From: a virus
DNA length: 64,000 bases
IMG/VR virus record: IMGVR_UViG_3300014839_000005
Span: 64,501-128,500 of that record
Strand: one strand, 5' to 3'
The translations under genes were made by a program, and so were the position numbers. The number at the start of each line of letters is the position of its first letter. Position 1 is the stretch's first letter. Positions 1-59,066 of the stretch are shown here, one piece after another. The notes beneath the pieces were generated by a model. The model worked only from the letters and a program-made list of their open reading frames with translations, searched no databases and was not told the DNA's origin.

Positions 1-9
1 TTTTTCCAT
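1..9 (-). CDS. 5' end of a fourth gene of the DHH-RT-RNase H operon (runs off the window)
   Basis: GAGGAGG RBS followed by ATG GAA AAA just downstream of the RNase H stop. Confidence 0.5.
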
Positions 10-36
10 ATTAACCTCCTCGATAAAAATGGAAGA

Positions 37-525
37 TTACTTTGAACCATTCCTTATCAGTTCTATATGGTTTTGGGCGATAATATCAGCCCGATTGTTG
101 AACCGATTGCTTGAGTGGCCCTTGACCCATTGAAATATAACAGACTTGAACTCGGAGGTTTCTTTGTCTATTCTTTTCCATAAGTCAATATTTGCGACCT
201 GTCCTCCACTGGACTTTCGCCATCCATTGGATTTCCAAGTTTCAAAGTAATCATTCCAATTATCACAGACATATTTTGAATCGGTTAGTATGGTACAACT
301 GGTTTCACTGGTTAACTGGTTCTTTTTGGTTAGGTACTGATTCAACTTGTTCAATCCCGCTGCTACAGCGGTAAGTTCCATGCAGTTGTTTGTTGTCCCT
401 CGTAAATGTCCCCCGCCCTCAATAGTATCTTGTTCTGGCGTTACAATAACATAACCGTAACCGCCAGGACAATTTTTTGAAGCATCATTACCGGAACAGC
501 CACCGTCAGTATATATCAGATACAT
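37..525 (-). CDS. rnhA: Ribonuclease HI
   Basis: YTDGGC, TNNCMEL, TDSKYV, WVKGH and NRAD motifs give the full D-E-D-H-D catalytic set. Confidence 0.95.
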   Translation of the reverse strand: MYLIYTDGGCSGNDASKNCPGGYGYVIVTPEQDTIEGGGHLRGTTNNCMELTAVAAGLNKLNQYLTKKNQLTSETSCTILTDSKYVCDNWNDYFETWKSNGWRKSSGGQVANIDLWKRIDKETSEFKSVIFQWVKGHSSNRFNNRADIIAQNHIELIRNGSK

Positions 526-565
526 GGTTTATCCCTTACTTAACAAAGATCAGGTAGGATTATTG

Positions 566-1675
566 TCAAGCAGCTGCTCTCCCGAACTTTCTTTCTTCGA
601 ATTCTTTGAGCATCATCATATACTTTTCGCCCTTTTTCCTGTCTACGCTCATAAGATAGGAAGCGAATCCTTTCAGTTTTCTTATCTCTCCCTTTGTGGT
701 CTTGGCTGCATTTTTGAATTTTGATGTCGCATTAAAAACTGCAGCCCTGAAATTATTTACTACTTTTTTCGGTAGAGATGTTTTTTCATTGACAACAATC
801 CCGCATACTTTAAGTCTGCCGGCATGTGATTTCCAATTTGTTTTATCCTTATTAGGAATAAAACCATAAGCCCACAATAACCTATATACTTTTGTCTGTA
901 TTAATTTCCTCAATTGCCACTTATCATGGGTTTTTGAAGAAAAACACAAATCATCAGCATATCGAGTATAAATGATGTCATTGGCTTGACAATATTCTAC
1001 CATTGACTCATCAAATCCTCTAAGAACTATGTTCGCTATAATGGGAGATGTTGGAAATCCCTGAGCGGTAAATCCATTATAAATACAGAGTTTGATCACT
1101 CTTGTAAGCAGAGATTGATATCCAGTTTTTTCGCAATAATCAGGAATGTGAACAGCTTTGATCTCTTCACATTTATGAGGAAAGTTCTTGTTCTTATTAT
1201 GATATAAAGACGGATGGCATTTTCCTTCCAGCATATATTCATAATACCTGCAATAACGGCAGATATTTTTATTGCCAAATAGGCAATTCTTTAAATGTTT
1301 TTCGGAAATACTGTCAAAAAAACTCTTTATATCAATTTTTCCAAGACTTTTTGCGCCTACATGTTTTTTAGCATTGGTTACAATGCCACGTTTGATGATA
1401 AAACCGTGAACAGCTTCGTTAGGTTTGTACCTTCTGAATATTCTCCAATACACAGCCTTCTGAAGATATTTAAGAGTACCGTCGGGAGCCAGTACCTTTC
1501 TCACGGAACCATCTTTTTTAGGTATTTCAATCTTCCTTACATGCATTGGCAGATCATTAATAATCGTATCAACTTTTTCAAGTGGTTGACCAAAAATATC
1601 TGACAATTTAAAGTTACTGTAAGGAGTTGGTGGTTTAACAGCTTTTTCAGCTGTGGCTTGGTTCTGCTGGTCCAC
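566..1675 (-). CDS. Retron-type reverse transcriptase with a Cys/His-rich insertion
   Basis: NAKKH (retron region X NAxxH), DIKSFF, QGFPTSP, YTRYADD, KVCG (region Y VTG-like); GTG start with AGGAGG RBS. Confidence 0.9.
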   Translation of the reverse strand: MDQQNQATAEKAVKPPTPYSNFKLSDIFGQPLEKVDTIINDLPMHVRKIEIPKKDGSVRKVLAPDGTLKYLQKAVYWRIFRRYKPNEAVHGFIIKRGIVTNAKKHVGAKSLGKIDIKSFFDSISEKHLKNCLFGNKNICRYCRYYEYMLEGKCHPSLYHNKNKNFPHKCEEIKAVHIPDYCEKTGYQSLLTRVIKLCIYNGFTAQGFPTSPIIANIVLRGFDESMVEYCQANDIIYTRYADDLCFSSKTHDKWQLRKLIQTKVYRLLWAYGFIPNKDKTNWKSHAGRLKVCGIVVNEKTSLPKKVVNNFRAAVFNATSKFKNAAKTTKGEIRKLKGFASYLMSVDRKKGEKYMMMLKEFEERKFGRAAA

Positions 1676-2753
1676 TGGTTTCCTCCTGTGTTTTTACTTT
1701 CTCCCTGGCTTCATCGATATTTTGAGCCGCACCTGTTTTTATAAGATCTTCGGCTTTTTTCTCAAATTTGTCATCTGCCTTATCAACACCGTATTTTTCC
1801 ATACCCTCCTCTTTATAGTTATTTGTGATTTTGGAAAAATCATCAATGAAGGATTCGATGCTATCTTCTTTAATAAATCCTCCACCGACATTATAATGGC
1901 CACCACCTTTAACATAATCAAGGTTGGCCAGGAACCTTCCAATATGGAGATCATTCTTTTCAGAATGCCAACGATTGAAGGCGACCTGCAGATGCCATCT
2001 TTTATTCCATACTGAAGATATTCTGATGTTATACTTAACATCAGGCCTTATGAAAGCTTCGGAATATCTGGGAAACTGACCTGTCCTTCTTTGACGAATA
2101 ACGGAAATCTTATTATAGACTTCCATATTCTGCTTTGCTTTCATAACATCGCCACGAAGATCATCAATGACGGATGCGTCGAGATTTAATATGGCGATTG
2201 TTTCATCAAGATCAAATTCTGTATTTACCAGGACTTCGACAATTCTGTTAAAAATCATGTCGTTGGGCTGTATTCTTTCAAGATACGCCCTTATAATCAT
2301 GATAGGACTTGCATTGGTAAAAACAAAATTAACATCCTGATAAAGTGCCGCATCAATCATATTGATGCTTTTAACCAATTCAGGAAGAAGGATGTTTGTA
2401 TTGCATTCTGCCCTATTTTTCTTTAAATAGTTAAAAAGAAGTTGGAATGCTGAATATGCCGCTGGATCATAAATAGTTTCATCATTGATTACCGGCTTAT
2501 GCCCAAGATCTTTATTGGGATGATGGTCTACCCAAAATGTGGATTGTCTGTGATCTTCAAAGTCGAAAATTGATAATGTATCATTCTCCCCAAGATTGAG
2601 TTTTGTGACAAGTTCGTTAAATTTTTCTCCTCTGGAATAAGACATCACAGGATAAAGGCGATAATTGATTTTGTTATTGATTATGTACTTTAAATACAAG
2701 GCGGCACAACAAATCCCGTCTACATCAGCGTGATACACGACATGATGGCTCAT
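1647..2753 (-). CDS. DHH/DHHA1-family phosphoesterase
   Basis: HADVDG, IFDF, WVDHHP and C-terminal GGGHYNVGGG motifs. Confidence 0.85.
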   Translation of the reverse strand: MSHHVVYHADVDGICCAALYLKYIINNKINYRLYPVMSYSRGEKFNELVTKLNLGENDTLSIFDFEDHRQSTFWVDHHPNKDLGHKPVINDETIYDPAAYSAFQLLFNYLKKNRAECNTNILLPELVKSINMIDAALYQDVNFVFTNASPIMIIRAYLERIQPNDMIFNRIVEVLVNTEFDLDETIAILNLDASVIDDLRGDVMKAKQNMEVYNKISVIRQRRTGQFPRYSEAFIRPDVKYNIRISSVWNKRWHLQVAFNRWHSEKNDLHIGRFLANLDYVKGGGHYNVGGGFIKEDSIESFIDDFSKITNNYKEEGMEKYGVDKADDKFEKKAEDLIKTGAAQNIDEAREKVKTQEETSGPAEPSHS

Positions 2754-2820
2754 GGTTCCTCCGGTTTGTTTTAAGTAAAAAAAGGCAGGTAGGGGTAGGT
2801 AAAAAGATAATTAAATCTTT

Positions 2821-2855
2821 CAATATTGTTATTACAGGAATGATATTAAAATAAC
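2821..2855 (-). promoter_or_regulatory. GTTAT-N18-ATAAC dyad motif, copy 1, upstream of the DHH-RT operon
   Basis: Half-sites at 2828-2832 and 2851-2855, followed on minus by AATATTG. Confidence 0.7.
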
Positions 2856-2878
2856 AATATCGAAATAACAAATAACTA

Positions 2879-2913
2879 CATTATAGTTATGTCATATAAT
2901 CATTAAAAATAAC
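2879..2913 (-). promoter_or_regulatory. GTTAT-N18-ATAAC-TATAATG motif, copy 2
   Basis: Half-sites at 2886-2890 and 2909-2913 with a perfect TATAAT adjacent. Confidence 0.75.
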
Positions 2914-2919
2914 AGAGGA

Positions 2920-4314
2920 TTATTTAGATCCGACTTCTTGAAGAGCTTTAAGAAATTGATTATTTAAAGCAGATTTTTGATTGGATAACATCTGAAGATA
3001 TTCATCAGTACCTTTATCTCGATGTTTGAAGATAAAACCATGTTTTCGTGGTTGAGCGACAAAGTTCTGTACCTCAACCTTTCTCTCTTCTTCTGGCAAA
3101 TCAGTATGTGATTTATATCGAACAACCCTACCCTTTACCTGTTCAAGCTGAGGATTGTTCCAATGAGGTTCCATAACTTGCATTAATTTAGTGCCTCTTA
3201 AATCTAGCCCTTCTCCACCAGCTCCAGATATCAACAGTTGTTTTATTTTACCCGTATTATAATTTTTGATAATTTGATGTCTTTGTCCTATAGGAGTTTT
3301 TCCAGTAAATTCAGCATAAGGAACTTTATTTTTTTCTAATAATGATCCAAGAGGCTTAATACCATGCCCGAGATAATTAGAATATGTAACCCCTTTATAA
3401 TTTTTATCTGATTTAAGTTTATTTGCTATTTCACTATATGCCCTCGTGATCTTTGGAGCATCTTTTATATCAGCAGAAAGATTGTATTCTCCAGGATAGT
3501 TTGAAATTTGTCTTGTAGCAGTTAAAAAAGCATTCATTTCTTTTGATTCAGATTTTGATGGCGCAATACCATGTCCTATTTTATATGCAAAAGAAGGATG
3601 TCCCTTTAAGGCCATCTTATAAGCGGCTTCTTGTTTAGGAGACATCTCAACATCAATTTCTTTTTCTTCTACTTTTGGATAATCTTTTGTTGGAGGTTTA
3701 TAATAATCAACTTTTCCTTTAAAACCTTCTTTAATTTCGTTAATATTTTTTGCTACTTGAACTTCACCAGGTTTGATTCCTCTAAATACTCTTGCAAAAA
3801 TATTAGGATTAATTTTTTTAGTTGTTATATATCTTTGATTAAATAGTTTTTCATCTCTTGGAGCTTTCATATTTAAACCCCTCATAATTGGAATTAATTC
3901 ACTTGGCCTATTTCGAAGAGGGGTTCCAGTAAGAAATAATGTTTTATCACCTTTAAGTTGATCTGGAAGATGTGACCTTTGACTATCCATCCTGCCCATT
4001 CTATGAGCTTCATCAAATACCAACATTCTTCCTTTTGCGGATTCAGGGGGTTTATTGTATGAATATGCAGTGACTGGTTCATTAATTTTATGTTTAGCTT
4101 TTTCTTTTGCAAAATTAAATTTTAACGATGCGGGACCGACGACTGTAAGGGGTTTATTAAATGCTTTGCCGGCAGCTAATGCTGTAAGAGTTTTACCAGA
4201 ACCTAATCCGTGATAAACCAAAAGAGCATCTTGATTTTGTAATTTTTCACTTACTCTTTTTTGATGTTCTTGCAATTCGTAAGCAAATTTTATAAGAACA
4301 TTATGATTTATCAT
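2920..4314 (-). CDS. SNF2/SF2 helicase-like ATPase
   Basis: HGLGSGKT Walker A, FDEAH, LTGTP, GGEGLDL, QVKGRVVR. Confidence 0.9.
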   Translation of the reverse strand: MINHNVLIKFAYELQEHQKRVSEKLQNQDALLVYHGLGSGKTLTALAAGKAFNKPLTVVGPASLKFNFAKEKAKHKINEPVTAYSYNKPPESAKGRMLVFDEAHRMGRMDSQRSHLPDQLKGDKTLFLTGTPLRNRPSELIPIMRGLNMKAPRDEKLFNQRYITTKKINPNIFARVFRGIKPGEVQVAKNINEIKEGFKGKVDYYKPPTKDYPKVEEKEIDVEMSPKQEAAYKMALKGHPSFAYKIGHGIAPSKSESKEMNAFLTATRQISNYPGEYNLSADIKDAPKITRAYSEIANKLKSDKNYKGVTYSNYLGHGIKPLGSLLEKNKVPYAEFTGKTPIGQRHQIIKNYNTGKIKQLLISGAGGEGLDLRGTKLMQVMEPHWNNPQLEQVKGRVVRYKSHTDLPEEERKVEVQNFVAQPRKHGFIFKHRDKGTDEYLQMLSNQKSALNNQFLKALQEVGSK

Positions 4315-4317
4315 AAT

Positions 4318-5076
4318 TTAATAAGAGTAATAAGGGCGTGAAGTATCTTTTTTCTTTGTTGATATCATTTTTTTTGCAAGAGAAAGTCCCACAGCTGTAG
4401 TACCTAATGCCATTTTTGATTTACTAAGATTTTCTCCAAAACTGCTTATTTCACGGTCTATAGACATATTGGGGGATTGTTTTTTAACATAAGCTGTTTT
4501 TAAATCTGACAAAGCGTTTCCAAGGTTTTTATAAGATCCAGCAATATAAGAAGGAGATAATTTTTCTTTAGCTTTATTAATGGCGGCCAATGATAAATCC
4601 CCACCAACTCTTAACCCAGCAACAATTTTTGTGCTGAGTGGTACTGTTGCTATTTTTGCAAGTTCATCTCGAAAGGCATATTCAGAAATTTTCATCATTC
4701 TATCTTGAGGTTGTGGAGTATTTCTTAATAAATTCATTATATACATTGAATCTGGGTCTTGATACGATGCCTCATGTAATTTTTTTAAAATTCCAAGTTG
4801 CCCTCTCTGATGTCCTGCTTTATATCCTAAATATCCTGACCCTCCACTAAGCCCAGCCAATCCTAAGCCAATAGCTAATCGTTTTAAAGTTTGAGCCTTG
4901 GGAAGTTTGAAATCTGAAATTTTTTCAAGATTTTCACTAATACCACCTATTAACTTTGTCTTACCTTTTTTCTGTCCTGCCTTATATCCTAAATGAGCTG
5001 AACCAGCAGCAATACCGGCAGCGCCAAGGCCCATAGCTGTTCTTTTAAGAAATGTTTTATTAATATCTACCTTCAT
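4318..5076 (-). CDS. Putative virion protein with duplicated Gly/Ala-rich helices and an AFRDELAKIA motif
   Basis: Two similar LKRxAxGLGxAG...LGYKAG repeats; shares the F-x-D-E-L-x-K-I-A motif with head-cluster proteins. Confidence 0.6.
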   Translation of the reverse strand: MKVDINKTFLKRTAMGLGAAGIAAGSAHLGYKAGQKKGKTKLIGGISENLEKISDFKLPKAQTLKRLAIGLGLAGLSGGSGYLGYKAGHQRGQLGILKKLHEASYQDPDSMYIMNLLRNTPQPQDRMMKISEYAFRDELAKIATVPLSTKIVAGLRVGGDLSLAAINKAKEKLSPSYIAGSYKNLGNALSDLKTAYVKKQSPNMSIDREISSFGENLSKSKMALGTTAVGLSLAKKMISTKKKDTSRPYYSY

Positions 5077-8236: not shown

Positions 8237-8271
8237 CATTATAGTTATACCACATAATGGGTAAAAATAAC
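8237..8271 (-). promoter_or_regulatory. GTTAT-N18-ATAAC-TATAATG motif, copy 3
   Basis: Half-sites at 8244-8248 and 8267-8271. Confidence 0.75.
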
Positions 8272-43077: not shown

Positions 43078-43112
43078 CATTATAGTTATTCCAAAAAACG
43101 ACTTAAAATAAC
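43078..43112 (-). promoter_or_regulatory. GTTAT-N18-ATAAC-TATAATG motif, copy 5
   Basis: Half-sites at 43085-43089 and 43108-43112. Confidence 0.75.
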
Positions 43113-49702: not shown

Positions 49703-49776
49703 TCGGAGTGACTGGACTCGAACCAGCAACCGCGTGGTCCCAAACCACGAACTCTAACCTATTGAGCTACACTCCG
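49703..49776 (-). tRNA. tRNA-Pro(TGG)
   Basis: Cloverleaf: CGGAGTG/CACTCCG acceptor, CGTGG-TTTGGGA-CCACG anticodon arm, GGTTCGAGTCC T arm. Confidence 0.95.
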
Positions 49777-56766: not shown

Positions 56767-56795
56767 ATTATTCCTTTATTTAAAGTGATAATTTT

Positions 56796-56866
56796 CTGGG
56801 GCTGATGGACTCGAACCACCGATGCTAGGACCAAAACCTAGTGACTTACCACTTGTCGAAGCCCCA
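56796..56866 (-). tRNA. tRNA-Gln(TTG)
   Basis: TGGGGCT/AGCCCCA acceptor, CTAGG-TTTTGGT-CCTAG anticodon arm, GGTTCGAGTCC. Confidence 0.93.
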
Positions 56867-56936
56867 GTTAATAATGTAATAATAATTGATAGCTACGTCA
56901 TGACTAGCCTTATCTTTTAAAATTACATTATATTTT

Positions 56937-58726: not shown

Positions 58727-58761
58727 CATTATAGTTATTCCTAATTATTCAAACAAATAAC
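58727..58761 (-). promoter_or_regulatory. GTTAT-N18-ATAAC-TATAATG motif, copy 9
   Basis: Half-sites at 58734-58738 and 58757-58761. Confidence 0.75.
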
Positions 58762-59031: not shown

Positions 59032-59066
59032 TATTATTGTTATTCCCAATTATCGAATCAAATAAC
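59032..59066 (-). promoter_or_regulatory. GTTAT-N18-ATAAC-AATAATA motif, copy 10
   Basis: Half-sites at 59039-59043 and 59062-59066. Confidence 0.7.

Follow-up and report, generated by a model that had tools for sequence, protein, structure and literature searches.

A retron-type reverse transcriptase, a template-like RNA and candidate processing enzymes in a core gene block of a lytic phage lineage

A minus-strand gene block beside the terminase

The DNA studied here, a window of 64,000 nucleotides (nt) covering positions 64,501 to 128,500 of the IMG/VR virus record IMGVR_UViG_3300014839_000005, is the right half of a single 128.5-kb contig, and at its left end it carries genes for a DHH phosphoesterase, a retron-type reverse transcriptase (RT) and an RNase HI, all on the minus strand. 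With the left flank of the window added (as L001, where window position = L001 position minus 12000), the block could be followed across the edge, through a small open reading frame (ORF) and a structured RNA laid out like the msr-msd template of retrons, to an intrinsic terminator (Table 1). On balance we favor the interpretation that these parts make up a phage-owned, self-contained retron that brings its own processing enzymes. Within that chain, the pairing of the RT with its template is more likely than the roles that we propose for the RNase H and the DHH protein.

The contig belongs to an uncultured tailed phage (large terminase phrog_675 at 5.7e-58), which also encodes a prohead-protease-like protein, a ribonucleotide reductase, helicases, a primase, a polymerase exonuclease subunit and an RNA-polymerase-like protein of 2124 amino acids (aa). 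A relative of the contig at the DNA level was not found in the GenBank phage collection. A preliminary description of the window, made from the sequence without database searches, had drawn attention to three co-oriented and tightly linked genes, and the ORFs bear this out, with a 29-nt overlap between the DHH and RT genes and a 40-nt gap between the RT and RNase H genes. The fourth gene that it saw starting at position 9 turned out to be a complete minus-strand ORF of 84 aa once the flank was in place.

Table 1. Positions of the elements of the block and of further copies of its promoter-like motif
Feature	Position	Strand	Basis
Tandem promoter motif copies, two	window 2822-2913	-	motif count, inverted repeats
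DHH-DHHA1 phosphoesterase, 368 aa	window 1647-2753	-	Pfam DHH, fold matches
Retron-type RT, 369 aa, GTG start	window 566-1675	-	PADLOC, sequence, fold
RNase HI, 162 aa	window 37-525	-	PF00075, phrog_531
Small ORF, 84 aa, crosses the window's left edge	L001:11755-12009 (start = window 9)	-	ORF with fetched flank
msr-msd-like RNA, 161 nt	L001:11585-11745 (255-415 nt left of window base 1)	-	fold, covariance model
Intrinsic terminator after the RNA	L001:11545-11575	-	only minus-strand terminator of the block
Further motif sites	window 8238-8271, 43079-43112, 58728-58761, 59033-59066; six left of the window	-	motif search

A retron RT of a clade that looks phage-specific

Profile, sequence and fold all place the RT among the retron RTs. 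It matches RVT_1 of Pfam at 5.7e-18, and its 25 best PADLOC matches are all retron RT models, with E-values from 5.8e-60 to 1e-41 and the leading ones at 6e-60 to 1e-54. A profile of 32 homologues, searched against solved structures, found the RT of Ec86 first (1.7e-37), followed by those of Ec83, Kva2, Ec78, Ec67 and Eco8, whereas the same profile scored far weaker against full-length group II intron maturases (~1e-9) and DRT2 (3e-7). Likewise, the 17 best Foldseek matches of the AlphaFold (AF2) model, which has a predicted local distance difference test score (pLDDT) of 88.6, are all retron RTs, with template-modeling (TM) scores up to 0.77. The kinship with retrons had been suggested in the preliminary description on the strength of the motifs NAKKH, YADD and VCG, and both the motifs and the grouping hold up. 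NAKKH occupies residues 101-105, with N101 and H105 invariant and A102 nearly so in the 32 homologues, where Y239-A240-D241 of the catalytic motif are invariant as well. The VTG triplet of retrons reads VCG across the clade, the G being kept and the T replaced by C, with no variation at C291 or G292.

Between motifs A and B lies an insertion of about 55 residues (window 1080-1300) with the pattern CxxC...C...C, which has no counterpart in the matched solved retron RTs. Its four cysteines (C139, C142, C153 and C169) are invariant in the same 32 homologues, a pattern that probably denotes a zinc-binding module. Homologues of the RT in metagenomes form at least 120 clusters at 55-85% identity. 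In bacteria and archaea, taken as one genome per species (n = 185,579), the best match reaches only 26-33% identity and belongs to the ordinary retron RTs of bacteria, so that the clade looks phage-specific, not prophage-borne.

A template-like RNA at the end of the operon

No msr-msd had been seen directly 5' of the RT in the preliminary description, and we too found no msr-msd-like RNA upstream of the RT. The recovery of the sequence to the left, which that description had recommended, brought one out on the other side, downstream of the RNase H gene, where it was invisible from the window alone because it lies beyond the left edge. The RNA folds with z = -6.3 and is closed by a 9-bp a1/a2 helix, in which GAUAUGGAA is paired with UUCCAUAUC. 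From 5' to 3', a1 is immediately followed by a G, after which come two hairpins, a long and then a short hairpin, an unpaired stretch rich in C, and a2, and the relatives have at the same place an RNA of 195-251 nt with the same layout. A covariance model, R1, built from nine copies of the RNA finds exactly one strong match in each related locus that extends far enough (E 3e-41 to 3e-4), downstream of the RNase H gene and the small ORF, and its matches include at least 10 loci outside the seed (L003, L006, L010, L011, L016, L019, L023, L027 and others).

The helices of this RNA are supported by covariation. In the R1 alignment, compensatory changes occur in 22 of 29 pairs, and 91.5% of the cells are paired, as against 40-50% when the partners are slid; none of 500 shuffles reaches the observed score. 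Since that alignment is fitted to the model, the count was redone for the two 5' hairpins on a plain, sequence-only MAFFT alignment, which gave 93.3% paired against 40-59%, with compensatory changes in 10 of 14 pairs. Cognate a1/a2 arms pair at 7.5 of 9 positions and non-cognate arms at 5.4 of 9, as counted on the model-fitted alignment. The G after a1, where the branch would form, is found in 23 of the 24 rows, inside a conserved (G/A)AAG, and an invariant CCCCGACYCCA stands just 5' of a2. The anatomy of the RNA is that of a retron-type structure; the branch itself we infer. If copying begins next to a2, as it does in classical retrons, the predicted complementary DNA (cDNA) would be about 95 nt long and fold to a long hairpin with a stem of about 20 bp (z = -4.2), and it would be longer in the relatives.

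One could instead take the RNA for a structured 3' untranslated region, a regulatory RNA or an RT-binding element, with the RT copying something else or nothing. Such a reading would account for its site at the 3' end of the mRNA beside the terminator, which is an odd one for an msr-msd, and for the Rfam search, which returned no family match and nothing near any gathering score. It could also draw on the loop of the terminator that follows the RNA (L001:11545-11575; equivalents in L002-L023), which reads YCGAYC, mostly CCGACC, in 13 of 16 loci. CCGACC is the core of the invariant CCCCGACYCCA and is missing from the other terminators of this phage; it would suit a protein-binding site, and as such may make the terminator hairpin part of the functional RNA. 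We nevertheless regard a non-template RNA as very improbable, given that a1/a2 helix, G, two hairpins and long hairpin together are a layout specific to retrons, that this layout travels with a retron RT, and that searches of this genome with the full model or a 5' msr model, with filters on or off, found no further msr-like RNA.

Two other candidates in this region were discarded. A 73-aa ORF lying over the RNA (L001:11527-11748), considered as a gene or as a "never-ending" ORF in the style of DRT2, has no spanning ORF corresponding to it in the relatives and no PHROG match. As for an msDNA (multicopy single-stranded DNA) that would act antisense to another phage locus, the matches do not exceed 17 nt, which is at the level of chance, and the invariant motif occurs once in the genome.

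The DHH protein, RNase HI and the small basic protein

The N-terminal part of the DHH protein matches Pfam DHH at 1.4e-5, with a score of 25.8 that falls just under the cut-off of 28.1, and DHH motifs I-IV, the GGGH motif of DHHA1 and the two-domain fold are all present (mean pLDDT of the AF2 model 87.2). Residues D12, G13, D64, D76-H77-H78, D134 and G284-G285-H286 are invariant in 16 homologues, and a disordered linker leads to a conserved two-helix tail at the C-terminus (MEKYGVDKxDPVEKKAxELVKTG...). The closest solved relative is PggH (7d62; sequence E 1.3e-9, Foldseek E 1.1e-14), followed by pAp phosphatase, archaeal RecJ2, GdpP and NrnA, the Foldseek values of the set including PggH ranging from 1e-14 to 1e-8. 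Judged by these relatives in sequence and model, the protein is of the stand-alone nanoRNase or dinucleotidase type, NrnA/PggH-like in its predicted activity, and not a bacterial RecJ. With PggH of Vibrio cholerae, NrnA, pAp phosphatase and the catalytic domain of GdpP it shares the two-domain fold and the catalytic motifs (DxD, D, DHH, D, GGGH), but it is only 10-15% identical to them and is set apart by the extra conserved helical tail and by a gene that overlaps the RT gene. The substrates of stand-alone DHH-DHHA1 enzymes are di- and oligonucleotides. Of the earlier proposal for this protein, the phosphoesterase stands, while its possible action on 2'-5' branches loses ground, as an NrnA/PggH-like enzyme fits the clearing of short oligonucleotides better than debranching.

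The RNase HI is assigned by PF00075 (5.6e-29; 101.6 bits against a cut-off of 25.8) over residues 3-153 of 162 and by phrog_531 (2.6e-40); PADLOC gave a match neither for it nor for the DHH protein. Positional homologues of the small ORF are 48-81 aa long and mostly basic, with a common FNxxIDAxxxFxKAIFP helix, and they are only 5-18% identical to the copy in this phage, so that the family is defined by position and a short helix.

Conservation and linkage in the lineage

Relatives in IMG/VR came from an alignment-based scan of viral contigs, a single-protein scan having given no match. The order DHH-RT-RNase H is kept in all 15 of them and in the metagenome loci that are long enough, with two exceptions (L023 and L029), and the block is always divergent from a conserved 347-aa gene and the large terminase. 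This neighbor of the terminase served as an anchor and yielded 19 loci; the trio is present in each of the 12 that have 4 kb or more of upstream sequence, and in two truncated loci the sequence stops within the DHH gene. The linkage is not chance, and the co-occurrence on which the preliminary description had made its proposal depend is there, with DHH and RNase H remaining linked to the RT across related phage contigs. Identity to the relatives is 53-64% for the RT, 56-63% for the terminase, 43-51% for the neighbor gene, 39-53% for RNase H and 33-47% for DHH. Conservation of the RT equals that of the terminase, and the block is a core of this lytic phage lineage.

Linkage of this kind could still have come about by descent, in which case the RT and the RNA would be a working retron, while DHH and RNase HI would be ordinary nucleotide or replication enzymes, RNase HI removing primers and DHH salvaging oligonucleotides or degrading host signaling nucleotides. 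Primase, helicases, polymerase-exonuclease and ribonucleotide reductase are all encoded by the phage, and therefore a replication RNase H is to be expected; moreover, L023 retains DHH, RT, small ORF and RNA without RNase H, and the nearest DHH relatives (PggH, pAp phosphatase, NrnA, GdpP) act on small nucleotides. Mere adjacency sits poorly, however, with the way the genes interlock: DHH overlaps the start of the RT by 14-119 nt in all 13 relatives examined, and the RT and RNase H genes overlap by 1-4 nt in 7 of the 13, so that they are translationally coupled in many. Exactly these genes and the RNA are framed by one promoter and one terminator, the block adjoins the terminase and lies away from the replication genes, and the contig sizes of the DHH homologues found agree with those of the RT matches. 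Given all of this, we consider coincidental neighborhood of the two enzymes unlikely.

Core status also bears on a second alternative, namely a conventional defense retron that excludes rival phages, whose msDNA restrains an effector (DHH, RNase H or the small protein) until a second infection. Precedent speaks for it, inasmuch as characterized retrons are all immune systems made of an RT, an ncRNA (non-coding RNA) and an effector (Mestre et al. 2020, PMC7736814), retrons are known on prophages, and the authors of a study of S. aureus jumbo phages raised the idea for their retron-like RT. But defense cargo in phages is usually accessory and patchy, whereas this block is found in every relative tested with an RT conserved like the terminase, and the clade was not found in bacterial genomes and so shows no sign of prophage carriage. 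A nanoRNase-like DHH protein and RNase HI would be untypical as toxic effectors, and there is no phosphoesterase type among the retron types I-XIII of Mestre et al. 2020 (PMC7736814), in the text of which the word "phosphoesterase" is absent; the impression in the preliminary description that the effector set is unlike those of described retrons was accordingly right. A defense retron is, to our judgment, quite improbable here.

Promoters, terminators and neighboring genes

Two tandem dyads ahead of the DHH gene were part of the preliminary description. The two inverted repeats are real (fold z = -4.75), but they are tandem promoters and not RNA elements, being copies, starting at window 2913 and 2855, of a motif GTTATTT-N12/13-nAATAACWATAAT whose dyad symmetry arises because GTTATT and AATAAC are reverse complements. 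There are 11 occurrences of this motif in the 128.5-kb genome, every one on the minus strand, where shuffles would give 0.1, and the dyads were on that ground rejected as a candidate msr-msd. The count points to a promoter class of the phage for non-structural minus-strand genes, and this promoter-like motif probably marks genes that are transcribed early or in the middle of infection, both here and in the relatives; in most of 16 related loci it was spotted by eye, without a pattern count, in the 160 nt upstream of DHH. The terminator after the RNA is the sole minus-strand terminator of the block, and with the promoter or promoters at the other end the unit thus comprises promoter(s), DHH, RT, RNase H, small protein, RNA and terminator. 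The tail TTTTTTTAGCTATT is common to intrinsic terminators of the phage (L001:11530-11545; window 7911, 41947 and 59407) and recurs after the RNA in L002-L016, being conserved across phages whose proteins are only ~50-60% identical.

Upstream of the unit, an SNF2 helicase (window 2920-4314) was considered as part of the module and rejected, as it is not at this position in relatives and lies elsewhere in L010; a 252-aa protein further upstream (window 4318-5076) is outside the transcription unit. A helix of the type xxAFxDELxKIA is found in this 252-aa protein and in small proteins before the DHH promoter in L002-L016, and is not clearly visible in the retron proteins. Downstream, in one subclade, a 286-aa Cys-rich protein resembling radical S-adenosylmethionine (SAM) proteins (CDNKCKHC) follows directly after the retron terminator (L012:11941-12801; also in L011, L014 and L026). 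After this gene, L012 has a partial second copy of the RNA (L012:13138-13213), in which two stretches of 54 nt and 23 nt, each 100% identical, remain on either side of a deletion. Elsewhere in the window are a transfer-messenger RNA (tmRNA) of the phage (58022-58429, Rfam 137 bits) with an unusual 29-residue tag, a tRNA-Pro (49703-49776) and a tRNA-Gln (56795-56867).

Proposed mechanism and points that weigh against it

It can be hypothesized that one or both of the phage promoters drive a single transcript for DHH, RT, RNase HI and the small basic protein, whose 3' untranslated end would fold into the msr-msd-like RNA just before the terminator. The RT would bind this RNA, prime on the 2'-OH of the conserved G after a1 and copy the 3' half, that is, the CCCCGACYCCA segment, a covarying hairpin and the long hairpin, into a hairpin of single-stranded DNA (ssDNA), about 95 nt long in this phage. 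The phage's own RNase HI would remove the copied RNA, the NrnA/PggH-like DHH protein would clear short ribo-oligonucleotides or trim ends, and the small protein may bind the product DNA. Since the whole module belongs to the core genes of a lytic lineage, the phage itself is the most likely beneficiary of the DNA, which could act as a decoy for, or an inhibitor of, host immunity or nucleases, or as a cofactor of the infection cycle, rather than as part of an abortive-infection defense. What speaks for a pro-viral role over an abortive-infection retron is the core status, the conservation at the level of the terminase, the absence from bacteria and the fact that no partner resembles a toxin. 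The stronger proposition, that the RT-DNA is a required pro-viral component for the whole lytic lineage, whether as decoy or inhibitor of immunity or nucleases or as a cofactor of replication or packaging, we put forward tentatively and with somewhat less than even confidence.

Several observations weigh against a self-contained phage retron. Both in this phage and in its relatives without exception, the RNA is found 3' of the RT, the RNase H and the small ORF, immediately ahead of the terminator, while that of classical retrons is 5'; the RT has VCG where retrons have VTG; and the pairing counts for the a1/a2 arms derive from the alignment fitted to the model. The locus L023 (3844-5332) has DHH, RT, an 81-aa ORF and the RNA and is without RNase H. 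The earlier idea of phage-borne maturation enzymes is accordingly supported as far as the linkage in the operon goes, and weakened in that RNase H is dispensable in at least one relative. In L029 (623-1756), the most distant member, with 47% RT identity, RNase H was not detected downstream of the RT, and the RT itself may be inactive because YAYD replaces the catalytic YADD. The DHH protein could have a separate job, since stand-alone enzymes of its kind act on di- and oligonucleotides, and synteny in a vertically inherited phage genome is, alone, no proof of joint function.

Relation to known retrons and meaning for the phage lineage

The self-contained phage retron proposed here can be set beside the classical retrons (Ec86/Eco1, Ec78/Eco7, Ec83, Ec67/Eco2; types I-XIII, PMC7736814), with which it shares the RT family by profile, sequence and fold, including NAxxH, a contiguous ncRNA with a1/a2 helix, conserved G after a1, msr-type hairpins and a long msd-type hairpin, and accessory genes in the operon of the RT. 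Unlike them, it is found only in phage and metagenome contigs, where it is a core gene, its ncRNA stands at the 3' end of the operon and not upstream of the RT, its RT has VCG in place of VTG together with the Cys4 insertion, its set of DHH-DHHA1, RNase HI and small basic protein falls outside the described types, and no toxic effector is recognizable in the operon. The S. aureus jumbo phages likewise have a retron-like RT in a lytic phage without a recognized effector, but that RT has 501 residues and one more domain at its N-terminus, 1.2 kb of non-coding sequence lie upstream of it, and DHH, RNase H or a defined ncRNA were not reported in that study. The best Staphylococcus phage RT in the phage collection, which may or may not belong to the MarsHill group, is only ~28% identical to the one described here. 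The viral RT clusters RTC3 and RTC5 (hLife 2024, PMC13681634) are also retron-like RTs in viral contigs, and the survey deals with the RT only, with operon, template RNA and processing enzymes not described there. In our literature search we did not find a paper linking retrons with DHH proteins, nor a published description of this operon, its RNA or its core status.

The current understanding of retrons is that of bacterial immunity, with a toxic effector guarded by the msDNA. In the lytic lineage described here, the core block consists of a retron RT with a matching template RNA, and RNase H and a nanoRNase-like enzyme take the place of the toxin. If the DNA is made, the purpose of msDNA would become directly testable in a new setting, and the block would be a compact, host-independent cassette for producing ssDNA, of interest for retron-based genome editing. 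It would also mean that small reverse-transcribed DNAs have a pro-viral role in addition, and if that role is true, this would be the first case of a retron that acts on the side of a virus and not against it. The phage probably produces such a DNA itself, a small single strand of a kind that has so far been studied solely as a bacterial defense against phages.

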